A stretch of 64,000 nucleotides of DNA, taken from an uncultured Muribaculaceae bacterium. GTDB taxonomy: Bacteria; Bacteroidota; Bacteroidia; Bacteroidales; Muribaculaceae. The stretch is from contig CANCXM010000004.1 of NCBI GenBank assembly GCA_947381945.1, positions 29,176-93,175 of the forward strand, in the 5' to 3' direction. Below the pieces are notes generated by a model, which saw only the letters and a list, made by a program, of their open reading frames with translations, was not told where the DNA came from and ran no database searches. Positions 6,661 through 61,300 of this stretch are shown here, piece by piece (positions within the stretch are counted from its first letter, which is position 1; every line of letters begins with the position of its first letter). Both the position numbers and the translations under genes were made by a program.

Positions 6661-6666
6661 TATGTA

Positions 6667-36541: not shown

Positions 36542-38830
36542 TTAGTACCAACGGGGGTCACCGATGCGCTTCTGATAAATCTCGTGAGACTGAACCTTGG
36601 CATCAGAGCCGCGGACCTTAAGAGCCTCGAAGATGTTATCGGGAGCTGCATGGTCTTCCCTGTGGGGAGCAGCCTTGCTGTAGTTGGTATGCTTCGGGTT
36701 GGGAGCCTGGAAGAATTCATCGGCGCGGAGCGGAGTTGCACCGGTCTTAACGACGAGGTCAGATGCATCACCGGAAACAAGACCGGGAGTCCAATCCCAC
36801 TTGTCGCCGATGGAGTTCTTCTTGGCCGAGAAGCCGGCTGAGGTGAAGATACCGTCGTCCTTCATGTGGGCGTCACGCGAACCGAGCGAATAGTTGTCCT
36901 TGAGGTCCCATGTCACATTGGCTGCACCAGCGATATTGCGGAAGTCACAGCCTGACTGGTTGAGTTCGCGAGTGTCGTTCTTATCAGATGCAAGAACGAT
37001 GAGGTTGTTCTTGAATGTGATTTTCGAATCATTGGGCATAAAGCGGAATTCGAAGAGCATACGGCCTGACGAACGGGTCGAGAAGTTGATGAACGTACAG
37101 TTCTCGATAGCGATGTTGAAGTGGATGTCATCGCCCCAGAGAAGGTCCTTGTTGTTGTCAGAGAGGAGGGCGTGGCGCGGAGAATCGTAGAATGTGCAAC
37201 GACGCATCTGGAAATCATTGTAGAGATTTGATTTCGCATTGTTACCGTCACCTGCAAACCAGGAGTAACCGCGACCGTTGTTGTCATAGTAGCCCTGATT
37301 GTAGAAGAGACAGTCCTCGATAAGGATCTTCTTGAAGATTTTGTAGCGGGGACCCTGCACACGGAAGAAGCCGCGGGTGAAGCCCTGGAATGTACAGTTC
37401 TTAAGCTGGAACGATTCAAATGTCACGGCAAGACCGCCTGAGTACATGTTGACGAAGTAGTTACCGGTAGCGCTGCCGTCGCCAAAGTTGCGGGCGAGAG
37501 GACACTGGAAGTCAATGCCTTCGAAAATGACGTCGCCAATTTCGATAGGAGCATCAACGTCGCCTGCTTCCTTGTTCTTACCAAGTACCCAGTTTCCGGT
37601 CACAGGATTGCCACCCTTAAGGGAGATACCGCCGAGGTAAACGACTGCACGCTTGCCTTCAGCGAGGTCATCGGGATGTGTAGCAAGGGTGAAGCCTTTC
37701 TGTACGAGGGGGTTACCGGTGGTGTAGTAGTTGTGTCCACCACGGAGATAGTAAACCTGGCCTTCTGCAATCTCATTTGAGTTTACAAAGTTGGTGATGA
37801 TGGTGTCAATACGTGTTGCATTGTACTCTACTGCACCGGGGATAGTGTCATTGGGGTCAACGATAGGCTCGATGATGATGGGATCACCGGGGTCACCCTT
37901 GGTGCGGACAAAAACCTGATTGTATTCAGCATCGATGTCGGTGCTGACAGTCTCACCTGACATATTTGTATAGGTGAACATGCGTGAATCATTACGGAGG
38001 GTGATGTAGTATCCGCAGTTTTCGTCAAGACCGGTAAGGCGGATTTCACCGGCAGCCTTTTCCTCGTCTGTCAGGGTACGGAGACCATTGACAAATCCGT
38101 CAGGCATCTTGGCATTCGGATTAAAAGGAGCAGGCTTGACTACGATTGTGCTGACAACGAAATTGCCGTTGTTATCGACATCGAAGCGGTTCTTGATGTA
38201 GTCGGGGTTTGGTGTGCCGTCCTCAAGAGTCTCCATGAGGTCTGACGATGAATAGTCCTTGGCATCAAATGCGAGCTTATAAGTAAAGGTAACCTCATGG
38301 TAATCCTTTTCCTTCTGTCCGCAGATACCGGGAGTGGTGTAGCGGTCATCAGTCTTGATACCGCAGAAATCCTCCCACTCGCGGCCACCGCCGAGTCCAT
38401 ACCATTCCGAGTGATGGCCTTCGCCCTTGGGCGAAAGTACACGGATGATAAAACGGTAGTCGGTTCCATAGTTGAGGTTGGGAATTTCAACATGAGTGAC
38501 ATCCGGACCTACGACAAAGGATTCGACAATCTTGGCGGGATCATTCCAATCCTCCAGAAGACCGGTGTTGAGATTCTCGGCATAACGGATCTCATAGCCT
38601 GCAGCCCCTTGAATACCGAACCAATGGAGTTGGACAGTGTTTCGTGTGCGGGGAACAAGTTTTGAAGAATATTCGTCGTTCTCGGGTTTTACATTAGTAG
38701 TGTTCTCGGACCTGAACATTGTTCTTGGCATACGGTCCAAATCCACGGGTGAATAGTTTACATCGTCATCCTTACACGAAGTCGCCCCGAGAGCAACGAG
38801 AAGCGTAAGAGCATATATGAATTTTTTCAT
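36542..38830 (-). CDS. PUL-1 surface lipoprotein, FN3-like N-domain plus right-handed beta-helix (DUF4957/DUF5123-like, putative glycan-binding protein)
   Basis: 762 aa. The lipoprotein signal plus export signal is LGATSCKDDD. PbH1-like repeats are present (LKNCTFQGF, IEDCLFYN, MRRCTFYD, IENCTFINF). It lies downstream of susC/susD and has paralogues at 50288 and 52848. Confidence 0.7.
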   Translation of the reverse strand: MKKFIYALTLLVALGATSCKDDDVNYSPVDLDRMPRTMFRSENTTNVKPENDEYSSKLVPRTRNTVQLHWFGIQGAAGYEIRYAENLNTGLLEDWNDPAKIVESFVVGPDVTHVEIPNLNYGTDYRFIIRVLSPKGEGHHSEWYGLGGGREWEDFCGIKTDDRYTTPGICGQKEKDYHEVTFTYKLAFDAKDYSSSDLMETLEDGTPNPDYIKNRFDVDNNGNFVVSTIVVKPAPFNPNAKMPDGFVNGLRTLTDEEKAAGEIRLTGLDENCGYYITLRNDSRMFTYTNMSGETVSTDIDAEYNQVFVRTKGDPGDPIIIEPIVDPNDTIPGAVEYNATRIDTIITNFVNSNEIAEGQVYYLRGGHNYYTTGNPLVQKGFTLATHPDDLAEGKRAVVYLGGISLKGGNPVTGNWVLGKNKEAGDVDAPIEIGDVIFEGIDFQCPLARNFGDGSATGNYFVNMYSGGLAVTFESFQLKNCTFQGFTRGFFRVQGPRYKIFKKILIEDCLFYNQGYYDNNGRGYSWFAGDGNNAKSNLYNDFQMRRCTFYDSPRHALLSDNNKDLLWGDDIHFNIAIENCTFINFSTRSSGRMLFEFRFMPNDSKITFKNNLIVLASDKNDTRELNQSGCDFRNIAGAANVTWDLKDNYSLGSRDAHMKDDGIFTSAGFSAKKNSIGDKWDWTPGLVSGDASDLVVKTGATPLRADEFFQAPNPKHTNYSKAAPHREDHAAPDNIFEALKVRGSDAKVQSHEIYQKRIGDPRWY

Positions 38831-38855
38831 TGTTCTTTAGTTTTTCTGATTGGGA

Positions 38856-40928
38856 TTACTTGTAACCGTATTTATTCTCATAGCGACCCTGCGAACGGCT
38901 TATGACAGCACGGGGAATAGGAAGAATATAGCGGAGCACAGGAAGATCCTTACGGCCGGGGAATGTGGCGAGATCTCGCGAATCCATTGCGAAACGGCCA
39001 TTGTCATTAATCATGACGACACCGCCTGCTCCATTCTCGTCGCCTTCGTCCGGAGTCATGTAGATGTAGCCTCGGAGTGAGAATCGGATTTCATTGCGGA
39101 TGACACCCTCTTTTGACCATTCGACGATGTCCTCGCGTACATTGCTGAGTCCTAATGCATTTGCCTCGGCAGATGACATTGTCTTGTAGGGATTCAGGAT
39201 ACGGCATACCTTGACAGTCTGATTGGGGAAAACGTTCTTGGCATAGATGGGCATCTCCACTCCGTCGACAGTCATCTTGTTGTCAGTCGTGCGAACGTTG
39301 CGGATTGAGAAAGGCACCTTGTCGTAGGCTTCATCATTACCGTCAAAGTCATAGGCTGCAACATGAGCAAGGTTGGACGAAGAGGTCTCAGAAGACTCGG
39401 CAAGCGAGAGATAGCGGTAGAAAGTCCAATATACATTCTCAGCAAGGAGGTCGTGGCGGACGAGATCGCGCCAACGCATGTTCTCACCGGCGAACTCAAA
39501 CTTACGTTCATCAAGCACGAGCTTACGGAAAGCATCCTCTGATGTGCGGGCTGAGATATAAGGCTCAACAAGTTCAGGGTTGTTTGGGAAAGCGCGATGG
39601 CGAACCTGGGCGACTGCTTCCATTGCCTTGGCTCCGTTAGGACCGCCGACACCGTGCTCAATCTCATTGATGGCCTCAGCATACATGAGAAGCACGTCAG
39701 TATAGCGCATGAAGGGGAAGTCGATACCGGTCTTGTCAGTGGTCTGGTTGCCGAGACCTCCGTTGACCCAGAGCTTCGACCACTTACCGTTGGAGACGGT
39801 GTAGTCGTTGTCAAACATCGCATCACCGTTAGGTGCATCGTACTTTATGAGCTGGTTGACATAGTCGCGGCGGACATCGTTCTCATTGAACATGAAACGA
39901 TATGTGGCGTTAAGGCGGACATCAGACTTGGCCTCACCATAGTTATGGGGAGTCTCACTCTGATAGGAGCTCATCTTCGGGCCGTGGGCATAGCCTACGC
40001 GTCCGTTGGCTGTTTTTGCGAAAGGAATCTCCCAGATGATGTCGTCACCGGTCGATGAGATGAAGTTACATTCATCGTAGAACACCTGATAGAATTCCTT
40101 TCCGAGACGGTGCTTCTGCGAATCGATGACCTTCTGGGCGTAGTCGCGGGCGATGGCGTAATAGTCCAGATAATTGTCATTCATGCGGACCATCTTGCCA
40201 TAGCTGTCACCGTCGGGACGGAGGGTATAGCCGGCGGCAGTCTGCGCGATGCGCGCGATCATTGCCCATGCCATTTCCTTGGAGATACGCTCGACACCAT
40301 CGGAAAGCTCGTCGGAATACTTCATATCTTCAGCCACTTCCTTGAGGTCCTCGATAACTTTGTCAAGAATCTCGGCACGATCCATGATGGGATAGATCTT
40401 CTCGGTTGCAGTGCGCGAGGAATTGAACGAGAAAGGAACGTCACCGAACATCCAGGTGAGGTCATGGTAGACAATTGCGCGCATCACCTTGGCTTCGCCG
40501 ACCATCTGACGGATGTCTGCATACTCAAGCTCGTCTTCAGGATTGTAAAGATCAGAAGCCTCGGCACCCTCTACAAAGAGGTTGGCCAATTCGATTGTGG
40601 CATACTGCTGCTTCCATGTCGAGCTTATGTTGCCTCCGTCGGGGTCTGCATCGTAACGATACCAGTTCGAGCCTGAAAGGAATCGGCCGGAGTTGGTCTT
40701 GAAGTCAACGTCAGTGTTCATGACGTAGGTTGAGTACAGCTTGTCGCCATAGGTGTCGCCGCTCAGCATGGCAGTGTAGATACCGTTGAGGGCATTGTTC
40801 ATCTCGGTCTTGTCGGAGTAAACATAGTCCGGGTCGTTCTGCGAGGGTGCATCAACGTCCAGATAGTCCGAGCAAGAGGCAAGTGCCACTACCGAGAGAC
40901 CTGTTAAAAATATATTGCGAAATTTCAT
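38856..40928 (-). CDS. SusD/RagB-family nutrient-binding lipoprotein (PUL-1)
   Basis: 690 aa with a lipobox ALASCSDYLDVDAPS. SusD motifs RYTDVLLMYAEA and ERKFEFAGENMRWRDLVR are present. Confidence 0.93.
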   Translation of the reverse strand: MKFRNIFLTGLSVVALASCSDYLDVDAPSQNDPDYVYSDKTEMNNALNGIYTAMLSGDTYGDKLYSTYVMNTDVDFKTNSGRFLSGSNWYRYDADPDGGNISSTWKQQYATIELANLFVEGAEASDLYNPEDELEYADIRQMVGEAKVMRAIVYHDLTWMFGDVPFSFNSSRTATEKIYPIMDRAEILDKVIEDLKEVAEDMKYSDELSDGVERISKEMAWAMIARIAQTAAGYTLRPDGDSYGKMVRMNDNYLDYYAIARDYAQKVIDSQKHRLGKEFYQVFYDECNFISSTGDDIIWEIPFAKTANGRVGYAHGPKMSSYQSETPHNYGEAKSDVRLNATYRFMFNENDVRRDYVNQLIKYDAPNGDAMFDNDYTVSNGKWSKLWVNGGLGNQTTDKTGIDFPFMRYTDVLLMYAEAINEIEHGVGGPNGAKAMEAVAQVRHRAFPNNPELVEPYISARTSEDAFRKLVLDERKFEFAGENMRWRDLVRHDLLAENVYWTFYRYLSLAESSETSSSNLAHVAAYDFDGNDEAYDKVPFSIRNVRTTDNKMTVDGVEMPIYAKNVFPNQTVKVCRILNPYKTMSSAEANALGLSNVREDIVEWSKEGVIRNEIRFSLRGYIYMTPDEGDENGAGGVVMINDNGRFAMDSRDLATFPGRKDLPVLRYILPIPRAVISRSQGRYENKYGYK

Positions 40929-40961
40929 TGTGATTATTCCGTAATTGGTATTATGATTTAA

Positions 40962-43900
40962 TTAGAAGGTCACGTTAAGACCGAAAACGTAGCTACGTGA
41001 ACGCGGGTAGCGGTTCATATCGTAGGAAGGAGTGAGGCCGCTCTGCACATCAATTTCGGGGTCAAAACCGGAATAGCTGGTGATGATGAACGGATTGGTC
41101 ACAGAAGCATAGAAGCGGAGCTTCGACATGCCGGCCTTGCTGATGATATTCTGGGGAAGTGAGTAGCCGAGAGTGATGTCGGTACAACGGAGGAATGAAC
41201 CGTCCTCAACGAAACGTGAAATGGTGTATTCCTTGGTGATGTCGGCGGGGTTCCACTCTTTGCGGTTGCCGTTGATGTACTGATACATCTCATAGCCCCA
41301 GAGCTCTCTGTTTTCAGTCATGGGAACGCCTGAACCTTCGAAGTTTGTCCATGTGCCCTGAGTGTTGCCAAGCATGTGTTCCCAACGCTTCTCGACATCA
41401 GTGTAGGTCCAACGTGTGCCCTTGTTGAACGACGAGAGGACATTGTAGAAATTGTTCTTGTTGTTCATCGAGGATGACAGACGGTAGGCAGTTGCGTTGT
41501 AGACGTCGAAGTCAAGGAAGAAGGTGAAGTTGGCTGTGAAGTCAAAACCCTTATACTGACCGTTGAGGCCGAAACCACCCTGGAGTTTGGGAGTCGTGCG
41601 GCCGATGATGGTCTTGTCGTTCTGGTCAATCACGCCATCGCCGTTGAGGTCCTTGAATTTGGGCTTACCGGGCTGTGTCTGTGCGCCCTGGTCATTCGAG
41701 TTATACATATTGTCCATAAGTATTGTACCCGAAACGAGCTTGCCGTTCTCATCGAACACCTGGGGAATGGGATCGTAGGCAGACTTTGCTGCGTTGTAGG
41801 TGAATTCGTCAAAGCCATAAAGACCGTCGTAGACATAACCATAGATGAGACCTACTTCGCCACCGACTTCAAGACGGTAGTTGTTACCTGCGTCTTTGTC
41901 AGCGCGGGAGTGATGGAGTTCGAGGAAGTTTTCATCGCCTGTGAGCTTGTCGACCTTCATCTTGTTGGCACCGAGGTTGAAGTTGGCCGAGAGGACATAG
42001 TCCTTACCACGGAGAATGTCGCCGTTGACAGAGATTTCAAAACCGCGGTTGGTCACCTGACCGATGTTCTGGAACTGCTTGCCATAGCCGATGGTGGTCA
42101 GCACGTCTGCCTCATAGATAAGGTCGGAAGTAGTGTTCCAGTAGTATTCCGGAGTGATACGCAGACGACCGTTGAAGAACGAAAGGTCGAGAGCGAAGTT
42201 GCGGGTGAGGGTAGTCTCCCACTTGATGTCGGGGTTGGGGAGATAGTTGGAGGTGTCGTAGTAAAGTTCACCATCAGGGTTCTCGGCAGATTCACCGAAG
42301 TTGGGACCACCTGAACCGTTGGAGGTGTAGAGATAACGCCACATGTCAGCTTTGATGCGGTTGTTACCGGCCTTACCGATAGCAGCACGGAGCTTAAGTT
42401 CGGTGAGCCAGGTGAGGTCCTTCATGAAATCCTCGCTTGATATAACCCATGCACCTGAAACCGAGGGGAAGTAGCCCCACTGGTGGCCGGGAGCGAACAT
42501 TGTCGAACCATCGGCACGGAATGTAGCCGAGAGGAGATACTTGTGGTCATAGTTGTAGTTGAGCTGACCGAAGTATGAAGTGGTGCGGTCTGCAGTGCCG
42601 AGGCTTGATTCAGAAACCCAGGGCTTGCCGAGACCGAGATTGTGGATAGCCTTGTCAGCTGTGATTTCGCGGGGGAAATAACGGTTCTTCTGCAAAGTTG
42701 ACTCACCCTGCTTGTGGTAAAGTTCGAAACCGACGAGAGCGTAGAAATTGTTCTTCTCCTTGATTGACCAATCGTAGGAAGCAGTTGTGGTCCATGTGTA
42801 CTGTGTTGTCTGCTTCTTTTCAACCTGAGCGACAGGAAGAGTCTGGTTATCGCGACCGGTTTTAGTCAGAGGGCCCCAGAAACGGTTGTCGTCGCTGAAT
42901 GAGAATGTATAGTTGCCTTCGGTGCGGAGAGTAAGGTTCTGGATAGGCTTGAACTCGAGAGAAGCCTGGTTGGCAATGGTGTAAGCGTGCTTCTTACGCA
43001 CATTTGTACGGATGTCGTTGACAGGGTTGGTGTATTCGAAGAGGGCTTCCTGGTCAGGGTCGGCTGCACCGGGAGTCCATGTGATACCACCGCCAAGTTC
43101 GCGGATACCGTTGGATGGACGGTAGCGGAGCACGTCGATGATACCGCCGGTGCCCACGTTGTCGCCACCTGCACCCTCGTCACGGCGATACGAAATCTTA
43201 GGATTGTACTGGAGTGTGAGGTTGGGGAGAAGCTTGGTCTGGAGTTTGGTGTGGATGTTTGTACGGCGAACGCCTGAACCCATGATGATACCGCGGTCGT
43301 CAGACTGGGTGAAAGAGATGTTGTAGCGGGTCTTGTCGTTACCGCCACCGATAGAGAGGTTGGTCGAGTAAGAGAAAGGATCATTACCCATCACCTCGTC
43401 CTGCCAATCGTGGGTGGGAGCGCTGCGATAAAGGTCAAGGTCACGGATGTTACCGAAATTGTAGCGGAAGAGCTTCGCTGCGCTGGAGGATTTCGAACGA
43501 CCGGTTGCAAAGTCCCACTGATAATCTACGAATCCGTAGGCATCCAGAAGGTCGAGCTTCTTGGAAATGTGGCTGACAGAACCCTGAAGATTGAGCGATA
43601 CCTGGGTCTTGCCTTCCTGAGCGGACTTGGTGGTCACGATGACTACACCATTACCACCCTTCGCACCATAGATAGCAGTGAGGGAGGCGTCCTTGAGGAT
43701 GTCGATGCTCTGGATGTCGCTCGGCGGGATGTCGTTGATATTCTCAACCTGGAAACCGTCGACGATATAGAGAGGGTCGTTGGACTGGGTCACTGACGTC
43801 GCACCACGCACGCGGATGTTGATGTCGGCACCCGGCTGACCGTCGACTGTGGTAACCTGCACACCTGCAACCTTACCCTGGAGGGCAACGGCGGCTGAGG

Positions 43901-44360
43901 TGACGGGGACAGCGGCGAGCTTGGCTCCGGAAACCGAACCTACCGAACCGGTGAGGTCGCGGCGGGCGCGGGTGCCACCGTAACCGATGACGACGACTTC
44001 TTCGAGTGATTCAGAGTCTTCAGAGAGGACAACATTGATGTTGGTCTGACCGTTGACAGCAATTTTTTCAGTTTTGTAGCCGATGTACGATACGACGATG
44101 GTAGCGTTCTTGGCAACGTTCTTGAGGGTAAAGTTACCGTCGATGTCAGTGACGACCACATTCTTGGTGCCGTCTACCTGGACGGTAGCTCCGATCATTG
44201 GTTCATCGGTGCCGTCGACCACCGTACCGGATACGGTGATATTCTGCGCATTGGCATTGAAACCGACACAGAGCACCAACAGAAGTAGCATTGTTTTCCA
44301 GTGCGTCGCAAAGGAAAAGTGCCGCAGCCATTGACTACGACTTGTCATTAAGTCTTTCAT
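40962..44360 (-). CDS. SusC/RagA-family TonB-dependent outer-membrane transporter (PUL-1)
   Basis: 1132 aa. It has a carboxypeptidase-regulatory-like domain (NITVSGTVVDGTDEPMIGATVQV), a TonB-box/plug (EEVVVIGYG) and a beta-barrel ending ...YVFGLNVTF. There is no STN signalling domain. Confidence 0.95.
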   Translation of the reverse strand: MKDLMTSRSQWLRHFSFATHWKTMLLLLVLCVGFNANAQNITVSGTVVDGTDEPMIGATVQVDGTKNVVVTDIDGNFTLKNVAKNATIVVSYIGYKTEKIAVNGQTNINVVLSEDSESLEEVVVIGYGGTRARRDLTGSVGSVSGAKLAAVPVTSAAVALQGKVAGVQVTTVDGQPGADINIRVRGATSVTQSNDPLYIVDGFQVENINDIPPSDIQSIDILKDASLTAIYGAKGGNGVVIVTTKSAQEGKTQVSLNLQGSVSHISKKLDLLDAYGFVDYQWDFATGRSKSSSAAKLFRYNFGNIRDLDLYRSAPTHDWQDEVMGNDPFSYSTNLSIGGGNDKTRYNISFTQSDDRGIIMGSGVRRTNIHTKLQTKLLPNLTLQYNPKISYRRDEGAGGDNVGTGGIIDVLRYRPSNGIRELGGGITWTPGAADPDQEALFEYTNPVNDIRTNVRKKHAYTIANQASLEFKPIQNLTLRTEGNYTFSFSDDNRFWGPLTKTGRDNQTLPVAQVEKKQTTQYTWTTTASYDWSIKEKNNFYALVGFELYHKQGESTLQKNRYFPREITADKAIHNLGLGKPWVSESSLGTADRTTSYFGQLNYNYDHKYLLSATFRADGSTMFAPGHQWGYFPSVSGAWVISSEDFMKDLTWLTELKLRAAIGKAGNNRIKADMWRYLYTSNGSGGPNFGESAENPDGELYYDTSNYLPNPDIKWETTLTRNFALDLSFFNGRLRITPEYYWNTTSDLIYEADVLTTIGYGKQFQNIGQVTNRGFEISVNGDILRGKDYVLSANFNLGANKMKVDKLTGDENFLELHHSRADKDAGNNYRLEVGGEVGLIYGYVYDGLYGFDEFTYNAAKSAYDPIPQVFDENGKLVSGTILMDNMYNSNDQGAQTQPGKPKFKDLNGDGVIDQNDKTIIGRTTPKLQGGFGLNGQYKGFDFTANFTFFLDFDVYNATAYRLSSSMNNKNNFYNVLSSFNKGTRWTYTDVEKRWEHMLGNTQGTWTNFEGSGVPMTENRELWGYEMYQYINGNRKEWNPADITKEYTISRFVEDGSFLRCTDITLGYSLPQNIISKAGMSKLRFYASVTNPFIITSYSGFDPEIDVQSGLTPSYDMNRYPRSRSYVFGLNVTF

Positions 44361-44438
44361 GTGATGATGTTAAATAATAATAAATAAGATTTCTTTCATG
44401 CAGTTTTTGTCTTCAATTTTTACTTGCCGATATAGAAA
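43600..44438. repeat. Left arm of the inverted repeat shared by susC-1 and susC-2 (perfect core 44074-44438)
   Basis: It is the reverse complement of 44744-45582. The first 365 nt are exact, and the remainder has ~25 mismatches by my manual alignment. Confidence 0.85.
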
Positions 44439-44540
44439 GTATTGGTTTTGTTTTCAATGATTGGTATAAGAGGTTAACAGTGAAGATGTTATACCCAAAT
44501 AAAAGTGCAATTTTCCTAAGGTGGGAATGCTAATTTGCGA

Positions 44541-44548
44541 CAAAATTA
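44541..44548 (-). promoter_or_regulatory. Candidate -7 promoter box (TAATTTTG, minus strand) in the unique spacer between susC-1 and susC-2
   Basis: Plus-strand CAAAATTA. It lies back to back with a weaker plus-strand ATATTTTG at 44553-44560. The shared leaders themselves contain no TAnnTTTG. Confidence 0.35.
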
Positions 44549-44743
44549 TGAAATATTTTGTAAAGTGCAAAGAAATCTAAAGTTTTTAACCAAATGGGTG
44601 AAATTGAGGGGATAAGGAGGCTAAATAGGCCGAAAAAACACGTCGATACAAGAAGGGTAATGTTAAATTTTATGCATTATAGCCCCAAAGACAGTAAGTT
44701 GTCGCAGGAATTCACTATGTCGGTATCATTCAGAATAGTACAT

Positions 44744-45582
44744 TTTCTATATCGGCAAGTAAAAATTGAAGACAAAAACTGCATGAAAGAAATCTTATTT
44801 ATTATTATTTAACATCATCACATGAAAGACTTAATGACAAGTCGTAGTCAATGGCTGCGGCACTTTTCCTTTGCGACGCACTGGAAAACAATGCTACTTC
44901 TGTTGGTGCTCTGTGTCGGTTTCAATGCCAATGCGCAGAATATCACCGTATCCGGTACGGTGGTCGACGGCACCGATGAACCAATGATCGGAGCTACCGT
45001 CCAGGTAGACGGCACCAAGAATGTGGTCGTCACTGACATCGACGGTAACTTTACCCTCAAGAACGTTGCCAAGAACGCTACCATCGTCGTATCGTACATC
45101 GGCTACAAGACAGAAAAAATCGCCGTCAACGGTCAGACCAACATCAATGTTGTCCTCTCCGAAGACTCTGAATCACTCGAAGAAGTCGTCGTCATCGGCT
45201 ACGGTGGCACCCGCGCGCGCCGCGACCTCACCGGTTCGGTAGGTTCCGTTTCCGGAGCCAAGCTCGCCGCTGTCCCCGTCACCTCCGCCGCCGTCGCCCT
45301 CCAGGGTAAGGTCGCCGGTGTGCAGGTTACCACAGTCGACGGTCAGCCGGGTGCCGACATCAATATCCGCGTGCGTGGTGCGACGTCAGTGACCCAGTCC
45401 AACGACCCTCTCTACATCGTCGACGGTTTCCAGACCGACAACATCAACGACATTCCGCCGAGCGACATCCAGAGCATTGACATCCTCAAGGACGCCTCCC
45501 TCACCGCTATCTATGGTGCGAAGGGTGGTAACGGTGTAGTCATCGTGACCACCAAGTCCGCTCAGGAAGGCAAGACCCAGGT
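44744..45582. repeat. Right arm of the inverted repeat shared by susC-1 and susC-2 (perfect core 44744-45108)
   Basis: See the left arm. The antisense ORFs 44083-44334(+) and 44848-45099(-) in the track encode identical 83-aa strings. Confidence 0.85.
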
Positions 45583-48160
45583 CAATGTCAATTTCCAGGG
45601 TTCAGTCAGCGAACTGTCGAAGAAGCTAGATCTTATGGGCGCTTATGATTATGTACAGTATCAGTGGGACTACGCTGCAGGTTCAGGTTCTCAGAAGTAC
45701 AATAACAAGCAGACCAACCTTTTCCGCTACAACTTCGGTAATCCCGCCGACCTTGATCTATATCGCAACGCACCTAGCCACGATTGGCAGGATGAGGTAA
45801 TGGGTGGTCATCCCTTCTCATACTCTACCAATGTTTCTATCGGTGGTGGTAACGACAAAACCCGCTACAACATCTCGTTCACCCAGTCTGACGACCGCGG
45901 TATCATCATGGGCTCAGGCGTTCGCCGTACAAACATCCACACCAAACTCCAGACCAAGATTCTCCCCAACCTTACTCTCCAGTTCAACCCAAAAGTGACT
46001 TACCGTCGCGATGAAGGTGCAGGCGGTGAAAAGGTCGGCACCGGCGGTATCATCGACGTGCTCCGTTACCGTCCCTCAAATGGTCTCCGCGAACTCGGTG
46101 GTATCTATTGGGATGAAGGCGTAGCTGACCCCAAACAGGAAGAATACTTCCAGTACACCAATCCTGTGAGCGACATCGAGCAGAACCAGCGCAAGAAACA
46201 CTCATACACAATCGTGAATCAGGCCTCACTCGAATACAAGCCTATCCAGGGACTCACACTCCGCACTGAAGGTGTCTACAACTTCAGCTTCAGCGACGAC
46301 AACCATTTCTACGGCCATCTTACTTCAAATGCCTATCAGAATCTTCCCGTCGCAGAAATCGTGAAGAAGCAGGTGAACTCCTACACATGGACAACTACTG
46401 CATCATACGACTGGACCATCAAGGACAAGCATAATTTCTTCGCTCTTGCAGGTTTTGAAATCTGGCACAAACAAGGTGAGGAATCCAAGCAGCGTAACCG
46501 TCTCTTCCCCGAGACAATCACCGCACAGAAAGCTTGGGACAACATGAGCCTCGGTACTGACCACTATATCTCGACAACCAGCCTCGGAACAGCAGACCGT
46601 ACAACTTCCTATTTCGGTCAGCTCAACTACAACTTCGACCACAAATATCTCCTCTCCGCTACATTCCGCGCCGACGGTTCGACAATGTTCGCACCCGGCA
46701 ACCAGTGGGGCTACTTCCCCTCGGTTTCAGGTGCATGGGATATCGCGCAGGAAAACTTCATGCACGATCTGACATGGCTCAACGAACTTAAGTTCCGTGT
46801 GGCTATCGGTAAGGCCGGTAACAACCGTATTGATGCAGATATGTGGCGTTACCTCTACTATTCAAACGACACAGGCGGTCCTGCCTTCAACGAAGGTTCG
46901 GAATCAAGCTCTGCTGAACTCTGGTATGGAACTTCAGGCAACCTCCCCAACGAAAAAATCAAATGGGAGACCACACTTACCCGCAACTTCGCATTTGACA
47001 TCTCACTCTTCAACGGTCGTCTCCGCATTTCTCCCGAATATTACTGGAACACGACTTCCGACCTTATCTACAAGGCTGACGTGATCACCACTCTCGGCTA
47101 CTCGAAGCAGTTCCGCAACATCGGTCAGGTGACCAACCGTGGTTTTGAAATCTCTGTTAACGGCGACATCCTCCGTGGAAAGGACTATGTCCTCTCTGCC
47201 AACTTCAACCTTGGCGCAAACAAGATGAAGGTCGACAAGCTTACCGGTGATGAAGACTATATCGACATCAAGAAAGGTAGCTCATCCTATGACAACTATC
47301 GTCTTCAAGTAGGTGGAGAAGTTGGTCTCATCTATGGCTTTATCTACGATGGCCTCTACTCTTTCGATGATTTCGAATTTGACCCCAATACCCAAAACTA
47401 CACCACACCCAAGGAAGGCGTAGTCTCAATGGATGGCATGTACAATGATTTCGGTAACTCCGCCGTCGGCAAGCCTACCGCCCCCGGCAAGCCCAAATTC
47501 AAGGACATGAACGGCGACGGCATCATCGACGACAAGGACCGTACGGTAATCGGCCGCACCACTCCCCGCATCCAGGGCGGTTTCGGTGTCTCAGGCCAGT
47601 GGAAAAACTTCGACTTCACCGCCAACTTCACTTACTTCCTTGATTTCGATGTCTACAACGCAACCAACTATTACCTCTCATCGTCAATCAAGAATGACAA
47701 CAACTTCTACAATGTCCTCGGCAAGTTCAACAACCGCTGGACATACGTCATCAACAAAATCAATGCAGACGGAGTAGAAATTAACGATGTCCTCTACGGT
47801 GCGCCCTCAGGCCTCATCAGCCGAAACGACCGCGAATATGAGACCATCAACGGCAACAGGTCTCTTTGGAATCCCGGTGTTGTCAACAAGGACTTCACAG
47901 TTAGCAATTTCGTGGAAGACGGTTCATTCCTCCGTTGTACAGACATCACCGTCGGTTACAGCATTCCCCAGAATATCATCAAGAAGGCAGGCATGTCGAA
48001 ATGCCGTATCTACGGCTCTGTGACCAATCCATTCATCATCACCAACTATTCAGGCTATGACCCTGAGGTCGATGTGCAGAGCGGTCTCACACCTTCCTAC
48101 GACATCAACCGTTACCCCCGTGCGCGCAGCTACGTTTTCGGTATCAATCTTTCCTTCTAA
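44822..48160 (+). CDS. SusC/RagA-family TonB-dependent transporter (PUL-2)
   Basis: 1112 aa. The first 204 aa are identical to susC-1. It has the same domain layout and the barrel ends ...YVFGINLSF. Confidence 0.95.
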   Translation: MKDLMTSRSQWLRHFSFATHWKTMLLLLVLCVGFNANAQNITVSGTVVDGTDEPMIGATVQVDGTKNVVVTDIDGNFTLKNVAKNATIVVSYIGYKTEKIAVNGQTNINVVLSEDSESLEEVVVIGYGGTRARRDLTGSVGSVSGAKLAAVPVTSAAVALQGKVAGVQVTTVDGQPGADINIRVRGATSVTQSNDPLYIVDGFQTDNINDIPPSDIQSIDILKDASLTAIYGAKGGNGVVIVTTKSAQEGKTQVNVNFQGSVSELSKKLDLMGAYDYVQYQWDYAAGSGSQKYNNKQTNLFRYNFGNPADLDLYRNAPSHDWQDEVMGGHPFSYSTNVSIGGGNDKTRYNISFTQSDDRGIIMGSGVRRTNIHTKLQTKILPNLTLQFNPKVTYRRDEGAGGEKVGTGGIIDVLRYRPSNGLRELGGIYWDEGVADPKQEEYFQYTNPVSDIEQNQRKKHSYTIVNQASLEYKPIQGLTLRTEGVYNFSFSDDNHFYGHLTSNAYQNLPVAEIVKKQVNSYTWTTTASYDWTIKDKHNFFALAGFEIWHKQGEESKQRNRLFPETITAQKAWDNMSLGTDHYISTTSLGTADRTTSYFGQLNYNFDHKYLLSATFRADGSTMFAPGNQWGYFPSVSGAWDIAQENFMHDLTWLNELKFRVAIGKAGNNRIDADMWRYLYYSNDTGGPAFNEGSESSSAELWYGTSGNLPNEKIKWETTLTRNFAFDISLFNGRLRISPEYYWNTTSDLIYKADVITTLGYSKQFRNIGQVTNRGFEISVNGDILRGKDYVLSANFNLGANKMKVDKLTGDEDYIDIKKGSSSYDNYRLQVGGEVGLIYGFIYDGLYSFDDFEFDPNTQNYTTPKEGVVSMDGMYNDFGNSAVGKPTAPGKPKFKDMNGDGIIDDKDRTVIGRTTPRIQGGFGVSGQWKNFDFTANFTYFLDFDVYNATNYYLSSSIKNDNNFYNVLGKFNNRWTYVINKINADGVEINDVLYGAPSGLISRNDREYETINGNRSLWNPGVVNKDFTVSNFVEDGSFLRCTDITVGYSIPQNIIKKAGMSKCRIYGSVTNPFIITNYSGYDPEVDVQSGLTPSYDINRYPRARSYVFGINLSF

Positions 48161-48196
48161 CCAAGTCTTTTGTAACTCTTAGTTAAAAAACAAACA

Positions 48197-50257
48197 ATGA
48201 AACTACGCAATATATTCATCGCCGGTCTGTCGGCAGTAGCTCTTGCTTCCTGCTCTGACTACCTTGATGTTGACGCGCCATCCAAAAACGACTACGACTA
48301 CGTCTTCTCACAGAAGATTGAAATGGAACGCGCTCTCAACGGTGTCTACACCGGCCTTATCTCCGGCAATACATTCGGAGATATGATTCTCACATCATTC
48401 CAGCTGAACAGCGATGTCGATTTCGCTTCCAACGGTTCGGCATCCACTTCGTCAGGCAACTTCCGTCGTTTCGACTGCGATGCCGACGGTGGAAACCTCA
48501 GCAAAATCTGGGCAACCCTTTATGAGGGTATTGAGACCGCCAACCTTTTCATCGAAGGTGTGCAAAACTCGCCCCTATATGATGCTGAGGAACCTGATAC
48601 TGAAATCGCCCAGATGCTCGGTGAGGCCAAAATTATCCGTGCCATCTACTATCATGAGCTTATATGGATGTTCGGCGATGTTCCCTTCTCTTTCAATTCG
48701 TCCAAAACTTCCGAGGTGAAGATCTATCCTATCACAGACCGTCTGGAAATCATCTCCAAGCTCATCGCTGACATCAAGGAAACTGCTGATTTCATGAACC
48801 TCTCGGCCGAGGTGTCCGTAGAACGTCCTAATCGTCAGACAGCATACGCGATGATTGCCCGTCTTGCACTCACTGCAGGTGGCTATACCCTCCGTCCCGA
48901 TGGAGATTCATACGGTAAGATGGAGCGCATGGCGAAGGAAAACTATCTTGAATACTACAAGATTGCCCGCGATGCCGCCTATGAGGTTATCTATGGCAGC
49001 ATGATGGGTACACATGCCCTCAACAAGTCATATCAGCAAGTGTTTGTTGATGAATGCAACTTCATTGTCGACAATCGCGACGATATCATATTCGAGATTC
49101 CGTTCGCTAAAAATTCATCAGGCAACATCGGTTATATCAATGGTGTGACTATGAAGAGCTATGATGGTGAGACTGTGACTCATAATTATGGTAAGGCTGA
49201 TGCAGGCAAAGCTGCACTCAACGCTTTCTACCGCTTCATGTTCGATCCCGAGGATTCGCGTCGCGATTATGTGAACCAGCTCTTCTATCTCGACGGTACA
49301 GCTACTGCAAATGCAGCCAAATGCTCCGCCGGATATACTGTCAACAATGGCAAATGGTCCAAACTTTGGAATACCGGTGGTCTCGGAAGCCGTACAGAAG
49401 GCTCGACAGGCATCAACTTCCCCTATATGCGTTACACTGACGTGCTCCTCATGTTTGCTGAAGCTGACAATGAGCTCAACGGTGGTCCTACAGCTGATGC
49501 TACAATGGCTCTCGAGCAGGTGCGTGCACGAGCTTTCAGAAGCACTAATCCTGCAAAAATATCTGACTATCCCAAAGGTTCCAAGGAAGAATTCCTCAAG
49601 GCTGTTCTTGACGAACGTAAATTTGAATTCGCAGGTGAGAACATGCGTTGGCGCGACCTCGTCCGCAACAACCAGTATAATCTTGTCACCTACTATAACT
49701 TCTGGCGTTACTATGCTGTGGCTGATGCGCAGGAAGGCACCGGTTCATTCTGTGCCGCTGTCTCAGAATTTGACTTCGGTGAAGGAGAGGATGAGCATTG
49801 GGATGCACTCCCCGACAAGCTCTTCCGCGTTGAGGATGTCCCCAATGAAGTCACTGACGAAAATGGCAATGTAATAGGCCGTCTTGTCCCCGAAACTTCA
49901 TTCCCGACAAATCAGAATATCCATGTCTGCAACATCGTGAATCCCTACACTTACATGACCCAGCCTCAGGCGAATGCACTTGGTCTTAAGAACATGGGTT
50001 ATACAGACCTTTTTGCCGACTGGTCAAGTGACAATACTATCAAAAATGAGGTCCGCTTCTCACTCTTGGGCTATATCTATTGTGATGAGACTGAGAACAT
50101 CCGCATTGTTGACAATGGTGTGCTCAAGATGGCTCCCGACCTCAGCACCAAACCTACAGTCGAGTCACTCCCCGTACTTCGTTACATCCTGCCCATCCCC
50201 AATACTGTAATCCGCCGTTCTTCCGGACAATACGTCAACAAATACGGCTATAAGTAA
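48197..50257 (+). CDS. SusD/RagB-family lipoprotein (PUL-2)
   Basis: 686 aa with ALASCSDYLDVDAPS, RYTDVLLMFAEA and ERKFEFAGENMRWRDLVR. Confidence 0.93.
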   Translation: MKLRNIFIAGLSAVALASCSDYLDVDAPSKNDYDYVFSQKIEMERALNGVYTGLISGNTFGDMILTSFQLNSDVDFASNGSASTSSGNFRRFDCDADGGNLSKIWATLYEGIETANLFIEGVQNSPLYDAEEPDTEIAQMLGEAKIIRAIYYHELIWMFGDVPFSFNSSKTSEVKIYPITDRLEIISKLIADIKETADFMNLSAEVSVERPNRQTAYAMIARLALTAGGYTLRPDGDSYGKMERMAKENYLEYYKIARDAAYEVIYGSMMGTHALNKSYQQVFVDECNFIVDNRDDIIFEIPFAKNSSGNIGYINGVTMKSYDGETVTHNYGKADAGKAALNAFYRFMFDPEDSRRDYVNQLFYLDGTATANAAKCSAGYTVNNGKWSKLWNTGGLGSRTEGSTGINFPYMRYTDVLLMFAEADNELNGGPTADATMALEQVRARAFRSTNPAKISDYPKGSKEEFLKAVLDERKFEFAGENMRWRDLVRNNQYNLVTYYNFWRYYAVADAQEGTGSFCAAVSEFDFGEGEDEHWDALPDKLFRVEDVPNEVTDENGNVIGRLVPETSFPTNQNIHVCNIVNPYTYMTQPQANALGLKNMGYTDLFADWSSDNTIKNEVRFSLLGYIYCDETENIRIVDNGVLKMAPDLSTKPTVESLPVLRYILPIPNTVIRRSSGQYVNKYGYK

Positions 50258-50287
50258 TTAATAAACTTAACCATCTCTATAATATCA

Positions 50288-52633
50288 ATGAAAAAGTTAT
50301 TATATCTTCTTGCCGGTATCATGGCTTTTGCGACGACATCGTGTAACGACGATGACACGACCATCTACACCCCTGCAGATGATCTCGACCGTATGCCGAT
50401 GACCATGTTCCGTAAGAACCACAATACAAATGTCAGCAACAGCGAGACTTACGCATGTAAGGTCGTTGACGGCACCCGCAATACAGTGCAACTTTACTGG
50501 TACGGTGTTGAAGGAGCCGGAGGTTACGAAATCCGCTATGGTGTGGAGAGTGGCCTCACCTCCGGAACTGAAGAAGACTGGAGCAATCCAGACCGTCTTT
50601 CAGGCACCTACATTGTAGGCCCCGAAGTTCTTCACTTCGAGATTCCCGACCTCAATTACCAGACCCCCTACCGTTTTTCTATCCGAGTACTTCATCCGGA
50701 TTATATCAAGACCGGTGCAAATGGTCAGATTGAAATAATCGAATCCACCAAGCACTCCAAGTGGTACGGTCGTGGAAACGGTCAGCAATGGGAAGATTAT
50801 CTTGGCATAGGAACATCCGAACGCTATGTCACTCCGAATGTTATCTTCGCTTCTGACAAGGATTTCAACTCATTCAACATTTATGTTGACCTTTCAGACA
50901 AGACCGGCTCCATGTCGCAGGCTGACAAGGATACTATCGCAGCCCGATTTGACAAGACTCCAAACGGTGACTTTGTCGCCCATACAGTTTATGTGATTCC
51001 TGATGCAATCAATCCTGACGCATCAGTGCCCGCCCAGTTCCGCGACGGTTATCCCATTGACCAGAACGCTCTAAAAGAAAATGGCGGTGTCATTCACGTC
51101 GACGGTCTTGACGAGAACTCAACCTACGTTATCCGTATCCAAAACAAGGACCGTATCTTTGTCAACCGCGAAGGAAAGACTATTGATGTGGACTCATATT
51201 ATAATGATGCCACTATCCGTACAAAGGGTACACCCGGTGAGCCTATCCTCATCAAACACAAGATTACTGACAAGATTTACAATGACTCAACTTGGAATGT
51301 AGGTGAACGTGAGTACAACTGTATGCGCATAGACACCATCATTTCTCAGTTCAACGCATCTCCGACCCTCGCTGAAGGTCAGGTATTCTATCTTGAAGGT
51401 GGCAAGGCTTATTATTTCTGGAACAATACAGACATCAATAAGGGTTTCACTCTTGAAACTAATCCCGAAGACGTAGCGCAGGGCAAGCGTGCCACTGTTT
51501 ATATGGCCGGTATCGCAGACAATCAGGGCAAACAGAACGACACTCGTACATGTAACTTCATGTTTGGTAAGAACCTTGGCGCAGGTGAGGTGGATGCTCC
51601 CGTTCAGGTTGAAAACGTTGTGTTCCGCAACATTGATTTCTCCGTTCCTAAATTCCAAGTATATGCAGACCGTGGTTCAGACGGCAATGGTAACTACTTT
51701 GCCAACATGTACTCAGGTGGTCGCGGTATCACATTTGACAAACTCGAGCTTGACGGTTGTACATTCCAGGGCTTCGTGCGTGGCTTTATCCGCACACAGG
51801 GTTCAAAGGCCAAGCAATTCAAACAGATAATCGTGAACAACTGCGTCTTCCAGAACAACGGTTATTTCCGTACCAACAATGGTGGCGCATACAACTTCAT
51901 CCATGGTGACCAGTCATCAGTAAACAACAACATCTTTACTGACCTCAGAATCACCAACAATACATTCTACGATTGCCAGAATTCAGGCCTCATGACCATG
52001 GGTAACAACTCACAGGATTGGCCGGCAGACCTCCACTACAACATCACTGTCGAAAACAATACATTCATCAACTTCGGAACACGTGCAGGTGCACTGCTCT
52101 TCAACTTCCGCTACTTCCCCGGTGGATCATCAATCACATGCCAGCGCAATCTTATTGTACTCGCTGCTGCCGATGATGACGAGCGTGAGCTCAAATGTAT
52201 TGGTTCTGACTTCCGTACTGTGAACGGCTCCGGTGTTGTCACACTTAAGTTCAAGGACAATTATTCAGTTGGCTGCCGCGATGCCCATTATAAAGACAAC
52301 GGCATCTTTAGCGGTAACCTGTTCTCAGCAACCAAGAACTCCTTCGGAGCATTCAAGGATGGTCTTGTCGGCGGCGATGAAACTGACCTCTTTGTGAAGG
52401 TTGGCAGCACTCCTCTCAAGGCTACTGAACTTTTCTCAGATCCTAATCCCCAGCACAAGCAGGTCAAGGGAACAAGTCATCCGATGGACCACCGTTCGAC
52501 TTCTGACATTTACGAGCGTCTTCGCTACCGCAATGATGCAAAGGTGACCTCACATGAGATTTATCTGAAGAACATCGGTGACCAGCGTTGGAAACTTGCA
52601 GACCCCAAGACTGCATGGATGAATAATGACTGA
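50288..52633 (+). CDS. PUL-2 surface lipoprotein, FN3-like plus beta-helix (DUF4957/DUF5123-like)
   Basis: 781 aa. The signal is ...FATTSCNDDD, followed by RMPMTMFR and GAGGYEIRYG. Beta-helix repeats are present (LDGCTFQGF, VNNCVFQN, ITNNTFYD, VENNTFINF). The C-terminus is IGDQRWK. Confidence 0.7.
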   Translation: MKKLLYLLAGIMAFATTSCNDDDTTIYTPADDLDRMPMTMFRKNHNTNVSNSETYACKVVDGTRNTVQLYWYGVEGAGGYEIRYGVESGLTSGTEEDWSNPDRLSGTYIVGPEVLHFEIPDLNYQTPYRFSIRVLHPDYIKTGANGQIEIIESTKHSKWYGRGNGQQWEDYLGIGTSERYVTPNVIFASDKDFNSFNIYVDLSDKTGSMSQADKDTIAARFDKTPNGDFVAHTVYVIPDAINPDASVPAQFRDGYPIDQNALKENGGVIHVDGLDENSTYVIRIQNKDRIFVNREGKTIDVDSYYNDATIRTKGTPGEPILIKHKITDKIYNDSTWNVGEREYNCMRIDTIISQFNASPTLAEGQVFYLEGGKAYYFWNNTDINKGFTLETNPEDVAQGKRATVYMAGIADNQGKQNDTRTCNFMFGKNLGAGEVDAPVQVENVVFRNIDFSVPKFQVYADRGSDGNGNYFANMYSGGRGITFDKLELDGCTFQGFVRGFIRTQGSKAKQFKQIIVNNCVFQNNGYFRTNNGGAYNFIHGDQSSVNNNIFTDLRITNNTFYDCQNSGLMTMGNNSQDWPADLHYNITVENNTFINFGTRAGALLFNFRYFPGGSSITCQRNLIVLAAADDDERELKCIGSDFRTVNGSGVVTLKFKDNYSVGCRDAHYKDNGIFSGNLFSATKNSFGAFKDGLVGGDETDLFVKVGSTPLKATELFSDPNPQHKQVKGTSHPMDHRSTSDIYERLRYRNDAKVTSHEIYLKNIGDQRWKLADPKTAWMNND

Positions 52634-55184: not shown

Positions 55185-55235
55185 ATTATGAGTCTGATGA
55201 TTTAGATTTAGGAGTTGTTTTTGGAAAAATTGATG

Positions 55236-57245: not shown

Positions 57246-57285
57246 TTTTTCTTCTTCGTAAAAGAGGTATATAGATTTTTATGTC

Positions 57286-60579: not shown

Positions 60580-60617
60580 GTTGTGTTTCAAAATAATAAA
60601 TTAAGATTTCTTTCATG

Positions 60618-60625
60618 CAAATTAA
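60618..60625 (-). promoter_or_regulatory. -7-like box (TTAATTTG, minus strand) abutting the conserved susC leader motif of susC-3
   Basis: Plus-strand CAAATTAA. It is a 7/8 match to TAnnTTTG and lies ~40 nt upstream of the ATG at 60579. The equivalent position in the susC-1/2 leaders lacks it. Confidence 0.35.
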
Positions 60626-61292: not shown

Positions 61293-61300
61293 TAATTTTG
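61293..61300 (+). promoter_or_regulatory. Candidate -7 promoter box (TAATTTTG) for the GH28 gene
   Basis: Exact TAnnTTTG match ~120 nt upstream of the ATG at 61420. It is followed by a hairpin-rich leader (CCGACA 61305-61310 / TGTCGG 61339-61344). Confidence 0.4.

Follow-up and report, generated by a model that had tools for sequence, protein, structure and literature searches.

Simple ON/OFF invertible promoters, such as E. coli fimS and the Bacteroides capsule promoters (Mpi), involve a promoter segment of about 300 bp, short inverted repeats and a site-specific recombinase. For Campylobacter fetus, Dworkin and Blaser reportedly described in 1996-97 a RecA-dependent inversion that brings the one sapA promoter in turn to S-layer cassettes of opposite orientation. 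In B. fragilis, susC/susD loci are controlled by trans-acting invertases (PMC4747536), and inversions of susC/susD clusters are under the master invertase Tsr0667 (Nakayama-Imaohji 2009, as summarized in PMC4747536). SusC/RagA genes are strongly enriched among the predicted targets of programmed inversion (PMC9881135). In B. thetaiotaomicron, BT1040/BT1042/BT1046 constitute a PUL shufflon (Porter et al. 2020; bioRxiv 10.1101/521070), for which a role in phage evasion has been proposed (bioRxiv 10.1101/521070). Muribaculaceae dominate the mouse gut, and a full-text search that combined Muribaculaceae with the one term inverton yielded no paper.

The DNA analyzed here (the window, 64 kb in full length) originates from a mouse-gut Duncaniella (Muribaculaceae). 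In the neighborhood of genes for pectin and galacturonate (among them GH28, GH43, pectinesterase and UxaA/B/C), it carries susC/susD/surface-protein triplets in three deeply diverged versions. The triplets are arranged as follows:

36542..44360, minus strand: operon 1 (Pfam scan and list of open reading frames)
40962-44360, minus strand: susC-1 of operon 1, start codon at 44360
38856-40928, minus strand: susD-1 of operon 1
36542-38830, minus strand: DUF5123/fn3 surface protein of operon 1 (Pfam scan)
44822..52633, plus strand: operon 2 (Pfam scan)
44822-48160, plus strand: susC-2 of operon 2, start codon at 44822
48197-50257, plus strand: susD-2 of operon 2
50288-52633, plus strand: third gene of operon 2
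52848..60591, minus strand: operon 3, the third paralogous triplet, tail to tail with operon 2

Pfam scanning detected CarbopepD_reg_2 and Plug domains in each of the three susC genes, and SusD_RagB and SusD-like_3 in each of the three susD genes. Thus, the hallmark of a SusC/SusD-type polysaccharide utilization locus, a SusC-like TonB-dependent transporter adjacent to a SusD-like lipoprotein, is present three times. The three susC genes, each of full length, have N-termini that are identical or nearly so, and a conserved leader element GCATGAAAGAAATCTTATTTATTATTATTTAAC was found upstream of all of them and of every orthologue aligned. When operons 1 and 2 were compared, the amino acid identity was 76% for susC, 53% for susD and 46% for the third gene. 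Because of the two latter values, operons 1 and 2 are, judged from their sequences, old duplicates beyond the susC 5' parts, and the two sets differ strongly in their surface-exposed portions. Operon 3 lies outside the repeat core described below and its 5' end is just 84% identical to susC-2.

The first-pass annotation of this DNA had described an inverted repeat around an AT-rich spacer between susC-1 and susC-2, and the corresponding elements are located as follows:

43500..44438, minus strand: left arm, leader of 78 nt and the first ~287 codons of susC-1; perfect core 44074-44438
44744..45682, plus strand: right arm, leader of 78 nt and the first ~287 codons of susC-2; perfect core 44744-45108
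44439..44743, no strand: spacer of 305 nt, the proposed invertible segment; colinear with the upstream regions of orthologues
44541..44571, minus strand: predicted Bacteroidetes-type promoter TTTG-N19-TAATTTTG (motif scans; inferred transcription start)
44421..44438, minus strand: putative left recombination core TTTCTATATCGGCAAGTA, where the left arm meets the spacer (homology to species X)
44744..44761, plus strand: putative right recombination core TTTCTATATCGGCAAGTA, where the right arm meets the spacer (homology to species X)
44369..44401, minus strand: leader element GCATGAAAGAAATCTTATTTATTATTATTTAAC; second copy at 44781-44813, plus strand

Base-by-base comparison outward from the spacer confirmed that 44074-44438 is the exact reverse complement of 44744-45108 over 365 nt, which comprise 78 nt of leader and 287 nt of coding sequence, and the matching antisense reading frames (44083-44334, plus strand; 44848-45099, minus strand) are present in the list of open reading frames. 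The first mismatch was found at offset 365 and 24 mismatches were counted between offsets 365 and 840. Beyond offset 850, the ungapped identity drops to 74%, 54% and then about 30%. A repeat search delimited arms of 939 nt, which are 94% complementary and 305 nt apart. Thus, an inverted repeat pair around a short segment, as expected for an inverton, is present in the form of long arms plus inner core sites.

The same annotation had attributed this identity profile to repeated inversion or gene conversion, and two observations speak for gene conversion. When susC-1 and susC-2 are compared, codons 1-240 are identical at a fraction of 0.87-1.0, which amounts to about 0.6-0.7 elsewhere as well as in comparison with susC-3. 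Moreover, when the window was compared with a sister lineage (locus identity about 96%), eleven sites within the first 365 nt differed between the lineages, but within each lineage both arms were alike. Since gene conversion between the arms is evident, the arms do recombine. Separately, we observed that one cassette has been replaced wholesale between strains that are 96-97% identical in their shared sequence at this locus.

The spacer is indeed AT-rich (34% G+C vs. 52% for the whole window). In alignments, its full length is colinear with the sequence preceding single-copy orthologues (L005, L102, species X), and it represents the ancestral upstream region of susC-1. The perfect box TAATTTTG was recovered on the minus strand (44548-44541), where it reads toward susC-1 and has a TTTG 19 nt upstream. 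Only four full TTTG-N19-TAATTTTG motifs occur in the 64 kb, the spacer copy included, and this promoter motif is kept in L005, L010, L024, L103, L106 and species X. Motif and conservation together suggest that the segment carries an outward-reading promoter, as invertons do. In the assembled orientation, the predicted promoter is 181 nt away from the susC-1 start codon and, after a flip, it would be located at the same distance (181 nt) from that of susC-2. Since the 78-nt leader lies in the arms, the 5' UTR would also be identical after a flip. A zero-mismatch TAnnTTTG facing susC-2 was not detected by motif scanning, and the plus-strand sequence ATATTTTG, previously put forward as a weaker second box, is not credible as a promoter: it has two mismatches and represents the other half of a near-palindrome. 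There is also no TAnnTTTG facing operon 3 in the 840 nt upstream of it and, therefore, the missing consensus promoter before susC-2 is no proof of silence.

The most direct evidence for inversion comes from species X, which is about 81% identical to the window and carries a single-copy locus. Here, BLAST comparison of independent assemblies revealed that the homologous segment (roughly 300 nt; 359 nt in L100) has opposite orientations in L100 and in L097, L098 and L101, with flanks that are about 99% colinear; L109 and L110 show the site arrangement of L098. Thus, both orientations exist in this species, and for the window strain one was found. It can be seen that the inner flanks swap around a 10-nt core, TTCTATAACG, and that the differing outer flanks stay put, so that the exchange point is this core within short imperfect repeats. 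Since these repeats are too short and imperfect to mislead an assembler and too short for RecA, the exchange is site-specific. At its inner edge, each window arm starts with 18 nt, TTTCTATATCGGCAAGTA, that are homologous to the species X site and the same on both sides. We propose TACTTTC-TATAWCG-NNAAGTA as consensus of the recombination site, the cores of the window sites being written as TTTCTATATCG. The idea that the inverted repeat serves as inversion substrate holds in modified form: the primary substrate is likely the short core at the inner arm ends and not the 365-nt repeat itself.

Taken together, we consider it fairly probable that the 305-bp spacer is an invertible promoter cassette, which is flipped at the core sites and selects between two operons (A/B) whose arms are homogenized by gene conversion. 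Two inverted copies of the short site would flank the cassette, and a site-specific recombinase whose gene lies at another place in the genome would flip it; such an enzyme has its precedent in the Bacteroides 'master' invertases acting on distant loci. In the assembled orientation, the sole canonical promoter would read into susC-1, susD-1 and surface protein 1 and, in the flipped orientation, into susC-2, susD-2 and surface protein 2. The ancestral form, which relatives appear to retain, would be an ON/OFF switch before a single operon, and a second, deeply diverged operon abutting the far site may have turned it into an A/B selector. Through gene conversion between the arms, near-identity would be maintained in the leader and over the initial ~254-287 codons, which encode the signal peptide, N-terminal domain and plug, and this would account for the long repeat. 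The long arms might additionally permit a slower inversion of the RecA type.

The earlier suggestion of an invertible promoter spacer between two complete loci is strengthened by comparative data (the species X flip, the conserved promoter, the intact cores), but inversion is unseen in the four assemblies of this strain (window, L001, L002, L003), which agree with each other and share one orientation. This single orientation would also fit a static inverted duplication under concerted evolution, in which the operons are transcribed independently (e.g., through a regulator that senses the substrate, together with a promoter of non-canonical type), the core sites are relics and the spacer effectively never flips. 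Gene conversion alone could explain the identity profile, operon 3 is presumably expressed even though it also lacks a consensus promoter, and some orthologues such as L005 have degenerate sites and look locked ON. However, both core sites of the window are intact, identical and a close match to the species X sites that were seen exchanging. Moreover, the first-pass annotation had proposed to compare the junction in related genomes and we found that the head-to-head layout with long homogenized arms recurs in two other Duncaniella lineages (L086-L096; L103), so that the arrangement around the cassette is kept in three lineages. Finally, a perfect inverted repeat of 365 nt with copies 305 nt apart recombines at some rate in any recA-positive cell. 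We therefore regard a static duplication as unlikely.

If homologous recombination alone were at work, RecA-dependent crossovers anywhere in the 365-939-nt arms would flip the promoter and a dedicated invertase would be dispensable, as is reported for the sapA promoter of C. fetus. The arms far exceed the minimum length for RecA and gene conversion shows that they recombine. As previously noted, the window carries no recombinase gene: none was found among the 47 open reading frames of at least 150 aa that were scanned (47 of 61, the other 14 lying inside or antisense to scanned genes), which cover every inferred gene. There was also none in the 10 kb beyond the right end of the window and none beside the single-copy switch. 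In the L086-L096 and L103 lineages, both spacer orientations occur among the assemblies behind identical arms of 464-644 nt. When L087 and L095 of the sister lineage, which have opposite orientations, are compared, the junction SNPs (arm offsets 22-23) remain linked with the spacer ends, as a crossover further out would give, and the end-B/TT junction predicted by a pure core-site flip was never seen there. However, short reads cannot phase such arms and assemblers demonstrably collapse them, since all differences between assemblies of the sister lineage are located in the arms and mirrored on both; the orientations in these lineages may therefore be arbitrary, and the L087/L095 contrast comes from assemblies unable to phase the arms. 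The homologous segment flips in species X with a perfect core of only 10 nt, which is too short for RecA, and both arms of the window retain this conserved core intact. Thus, RecA as sole agent appears quite improbable.

An assembly artefact, i.e., a collapsed or chimeric head-to-head join or repeat, is extremely improbable: the L004 contig begins exactly at 44744 (the inner arm edge), these susC 5' regions are frequent break points of MAG contigs and the mirrored differences indicate arm collapse in the sister lineage, but the layout with its unique flanks (Rnf genes; operon 3 and GH28) is read in three other contigs of the strain and also occurs in two other lineages, dozens more contigs carry the same susC proteins, the arms diverge outward into clearly different genes and a collapse could only alter the exact count of arm differences. 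As to this count, the 'perfect' arm identity in the window could hide a few real differences.

Returning to the core-site-flipped cassette, it is possible, and we suggest this tentatively, that operon fusion at the far site converted an ON/OFF promoter into a two-way selector, that recombination at the switch drives the gene conversion and that the locus functions as a modular 'expression port'. Leader, signal peptide and plug would be held identical, and barrel, SusD and surface protein would be free to diverge. Muribaculaceae would thus possess exchangeable surface cassettes for glycan capture, which selection by phages, immunity or diet would have shaped.

The proposed promoter selector is a variant of the inversion trick already known in Bacteroidales, and either of the two operons, but probably not both, is active in a given cell. 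If the switch operates in this manner, an individual Duncaniella cell expresses one of two pectin-type uptake sets but never both, and populations would be heterogeneous at a dietary-fiber locus, both in how they capture glycans and in the targets that they offer to phages and antibodies. The locus also offers a clear evolutionary path from an ON/OFF to an A/B switch. Short-read tools for invertible promoters do not see long-arm switches of this kind, and assemblers collapse the arms.

When compared with the described systems, the window resembles the B. thetaiotaomicron shufflon in that paralogous susC operons share 5' sequence and recombination re-assigns the expressed operon (in the window, as proposed). 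However, there the 7-bp recombination site is part of the susC coding sequence, only one of three copies has an untruncated 5' end, the tyrosine recombinase BT1041 is encoded within the locus and expression needs an ECF sigma factor. Neither this site nor the sigma factor feature was found in the window, all susC genes are full-length and, without 5'-truncated silent susC or a recombinase in the locus, we rejected a shufflon of the BT1040-46 type.

The Tsr0667 system, as far as the published summary describes it, is similar in three respects: DNA inversion selects the expressed SusC/SusD outer-membrane set, the invertase acts in trans on distant loci (which we also propose here), and simple promoter inversions occur together with multi-gene arrangements beside susC/susD. 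The differences concern the site (AGTYYYN4GDACT in that summary vs. TACTTTC-TATAWCG-NNAAGTA), the host (Muribaculaceae, not Bacteroides) and the architecture, since in the window both susC genes are full-length and only a promoter cassette lies between the sites. A Tsr0667-type shufflon was rejected: AGTYYYN4GDACT (one mismatch allowed) gave 11 matches vs. 15.8 expected, none of them at the arm ends.

With the C. fetus sapA system, as it is reported, the window shares a single promoter on an invertible segment between oppositely oriented homologues, several hundred bp of shared leader and 5' coding sequence and, as proposed here, the alternating expression of cassettes; long conserved 5' regions of opposed homologues around a single promoter were also found here. 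That system is said to be RecA-dependent and to work without a short core site, whereas the window has a conserved short core whose flip was seen in a relative. The cargo also differs, reportedly S-layer genes there and nutrient-uptake operons here. Finally, the single-copy relatives of the window locus look exactly like simple ON/OFF invertible promoters of the fimS/Mpi type. The window departs from this type in that a second complete operon lies in the 'OFF' direction and that the repeats appear to have grown to 365-939 nt by gene conversion.

The window originates from a mouse-gut Duncaniella (Muribaculaceae) and carries three paralogous susC + susD + surface-protein triplets in a row. These triplets are followed by genes for GH28, GH43, a pectinesterase, UxaB/A/C and a sugar transporter, and this neighbourhood marks the stretch as a pectin and galacturonate region. 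The triplets are old paralogues, whose SusC proteins are 74-76% identical in amino acids, their SusD proteins 48-53% and their third proteins 43-46%. Farther away (5669-8319, minus strand), an ECF-type sigma factor, a winged-helix protein and an orphan methyltransferase, for which no partner restriction enzyme was seen, lie between leucine-biosynthesis genes and guaA. A HipA-like kinase ORF (29297-30085, minus strand) adjoins a CitMHS transporter gene.

36542-44360 (-), operon 1
44822-52633 (+), operon 2
52848-60591 (-), operon 3
5669-6259 (-), ECF-type sigma factor
6667-7383 (-), winged-helix protein
7423-8319 (-), orphan D12-class N6-adenine DNA methyltransferase

A repeat search in the window returned two inverted arms of 939 nt (43500-44438 and 44744-45682), which are 94% complementary and enclose 305 nt. 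Base-by-base comparison outward from the spacer met no mismatch in the first 365 nt, which makes 44074-44438 and 44744-45108 exact reverse complements, but such perfect identity in short-read assemblies should be treated with care, given the mirrored differences of the sister lineage described below. At offsets 365-840 we counted 24 mismatches, and past about 850 identity collapses. Since the start codons are located at 44360 (-) for susC-1 and 44822 (+) for susC-2, each perfect arm consists of 78 nt of leader and 287 nt of coding sequence. The 365-nt repeat and the pair of antisense ORFs reported in the first-pass annotation were both recovered, the latter from the ORF list, and the observation of an inverted repeat around the spacer is confirmed.

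The spacer had been called AT-rich, and its G+C content is indeed 34% compared with 52% for the window. When its minus strand was aligned with the upstream regions of single-copy susC-1 orthologues (loci L005 and L102, species X), it was colinear over its entire length. A motif scan predicted one canonical Bacteroidetes promoter, which reads toward susC-1 and is kept in L005, L010, L024, L103, L106 and species X; across the 64 kb, the full motif has just four occurrences. The same scan found no zero-mismatch -7 box toward susC-2, and the plus-strand ATATTTTG, previously taken for a weaker box, carries two mismatches and forms the mirror-image half of a near-palindrome. Upstream of susC-3, 828 nt (60592-61419) contain no TAnnTTTG box toward this gene; the sole box there (61293, plus strand) points toward the GH28 gene. 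A consensus promoter is missing from operon 3 as well, so its absence before susC-2 is weak evidence for silence. A leader element of about 33 nt, GCATGAAAGAAATCTTATTTATTATTATTTAAC, stops 8 nt before the start codons of susC-1 and susC-2. Hardly any of its positions vary among the three susC paralogues and all the aligned orthologues (including L005, L010, L012, L024 and L038), and the element may serve for control at the translational or RNA level; an Rfam search of 43500-45700 (E up to 1) returned nothing, so the element has no match there.

44571-44541 (-), predicted promoter TTTG-N19-TAATTTTG toward susC-1
44369-44401 (-), leader element, susC-1 copy
44781-44813 (+), leader element, susC-2 copy
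about 60592-60625 (-), leader element upstream of susC-3

Scanning the JGI metagenomes with a promoter 20-mer led to loci of species X, a relative with a single-copy operon; one further match (L099) was discarded as an unrelated chance match, and a spacer 24-mer gave no match in these metagenomes. Four contigs of this one species (L097, L098, L100, L101) are about 81% identical to the window. Here, we found that a 359-nt segment of L100 (2960-3318) is inverted relative to the other three, with flanks that are colinear at 99.1-99.7% identity; L109 and L110 share the site arrangement of L098. At the base level, the inner flanks ATATATG and AATACATT swap around a 10-nt core, TTCTATAACG, and the outer flanks CGAAGTAG and GAAAGTAAAAAAA keep their places. 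Since these repeats are too short and imperfect to confuse an assembler and lie below the need of RecA, the contigs indicate that the promoter segment was truly inverted in a site-specific manner. The homologous sequence TTTCTATATCGGCAAGTA opens both window arms in identical form (44421-44438, minus strand; 44744-44761, plus strand). Across lineages the site reads TACTTTC-TATAWCG-NNAAGTA with a dyad about a 7-nt centre, a layout that suggests a tyrosine-recombinase core site; in L005 the sites are degenerate. From comparison with L005, the inner repeat boundary had been considered an inverted-duplication junction at 7-9-nt microhomology. The species X data overturned this idea and show the boundary to be the probable far recombination site of an older switch.

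In the mechanism that we propose, a single operon would ancestrally have been preceded by an invertible ON/OFF promoter. In the window, the second operon would abut the far site, so that the former OFF direction would now feed operon 2. Because the leader lies inside the arms, both mRNAs would share one 5' UTR, and 181 nt would separate the -7 box from each of the two start codons. Transcription would begin near 44534 (-), with a counterpart start toward susC-2 in flipped cells alone, and individual cells would express one operon to the exclusion of the other. The first-pass annotation had proposed a candidate invertible switch; as a candidate it is supported by the species X flip at the homologous core site, but its mechanism is now refined to that site. 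We consider a site-specific switch between operon 1 and operon 2 the probable explanation, with moderate confidence. No recombinase gene was found in the window, as had been stated before, nor in the 10 kb past its right end or beside the single-copy switch of species X.

Against the old-paralogue background, susC-1 and susC-2 are unusually alike over their 5' 840 nt. Over codons 1-240, the two genes share an identical-codon fraction of 0.87-1.0, compared with about 0.6-0.7 versus susC-3 and across the remainder of the gene. Within the first 365 nt, 11 sites differ between the window lineage and the sister lineage (about 96% identical at the locus), and at these sites both arms have the same base within each lineage. 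This codon-identity excess and the arm-matched sites argue for arm-to-arm gene conversion, under which the arms evolve in concert, and they bear out the previous reading of the sharp identity decay. The homogenised tract ends near residue 254, where loss of similarity had been placed; this is the end of the plug domain, at which all paralogues diverge. A static repeat under such concerted evolution would fit the single orientation shared by the window, L001, L002 and L003, which represent one strain (L004 ends exactly at 44744). The identical core sites on both arms, homologous to the site of the species X flip, speak against a static repeat, and we regard this explanation as unlikely.

Two further lineages share the head-to-head design and its long homogenised arms, the sister lineage (L086-L096; perfect arm identity 620-644 nt) and a D. 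muris-like lineage (L103; 464 nt perfect, 426-nt spacer). The sister-lineage promoter points toward susC-2 in L086, L087, L090, L091 and L093 and toward the other susC in L095 and L096, and the orientation of L103 differs from that of L104, L105 and L007. The L103-L104 difference, at first read as a clean inversion over a 29-nt repeat, was downgraded since the arms are perfect over 464 nt. All these orientation calls are unreliable, and those of the sister lineage are not decisive as direct flip evidence, because every difference between assemblies is mirrored on both arms. Otherwise identical 23-kb loci from independent assemblies of one strain (L086, L087, L090, L093, L089, L094) differ solely in the arms (about 8869-9328 and 9945-10507). 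Either assemblers collapse two slightly different arms or co-conversion is very fast; the mirroring suggests a collapsed path walked twice, with the spacer not phasable against unique flanks. At the junction SNPs (arm offsets 22-23, CA or TT), spacer end B always goes with CA and was never seen joined to TT in the sister lineage, and end A goes with TT, or with CA in L086 and L093 (contrast set L087, L090, L095). These combinations do not follow cleanly from a simple core-site flip or from simple gene conversion; they are better matched by arbitrary assembly, or by a crossover at a more distal point of the arm, than by a pure core-site flip. Inversion by RecA alone could draw on such an outer crossover and on the long arms, and the short repeats of species X weigh against it, so that we give it a low probability. 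That the repeat as a whole is an assembly artefact is highly improbable, collapsed arms notwithstanding, as the design recurs across lineages.

In L088, L089 and L094, a 169-nt deletion upstream of susC-2 shortens the intergenic region to 291 nt instead of 460. Lost with it are about 19 nt at the inner end of the left arm, including the far core site, and the half of the spacer that is distal to the promoter; the remaining promoter points toward susC-2, and the deletion may represent a naturally locked variant. At the position of operon 1 (window 36542-44360), the sister lineage carries a different cassette (1870-9540 in L086, L087, L090 and L093) with a susC of 1110 aa, a SusD 48% identical to SusD-1 and a third protein also 48% identical. 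Around this cassette the lineage retains the Rnf flank and operons 2 and 3, with alignable flanks 96-97% identical to the window, and one switch side has undergone strain-level cassette replacement. Another head-to-head susC pair occurs in Duncaniella sp. MGBC127601 (L015, 2871-8546), with a 2.76-kb inverted repeat (96% identity, 1256 nt perfect) around a 162-nt spacer; its inner repeat sequence differs, and CAAACGTACC is present on one arm. Head-to-head susC pairs whose 5' ends are homogenised seem to be a recurrent feature of Duncaniella. A scan of GTDB genomes yielded no intact copy of the exact locus; the nearest representative is MAG MGBC102213, whose own copy is split at the repeat.

Bacteroides is well known for DNA inversions at susC/susD loci. 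Across bacteria, few predicted inversion targets are as strongly enriched as SusC/RagA genes (PMC9881135), and gut inflammation is associated with inversions close to susC/susD (PMC10939037). The master invertases of B. fragilis act in trans; one of them, Tsr0667, works on three susC/susD clusters (PMC4747536). In contrast to that system, the Tsr0667 motif is not enriched in the window, and a lone match near the outer arm edge is merely conserved coding sequence for YQWDY. BT1040, BT1042 and BT1046 of B. thetaiotaomicron are shuffled via a 7-bp site by the locus-encoded recombinase BT1041 (10.1101/521070). Unlike this shufflon, the window locus has neither 5'-truncated copies nor a local recombinase. 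Functionally, it resembles the promoter inversion at C. fetus sapA.
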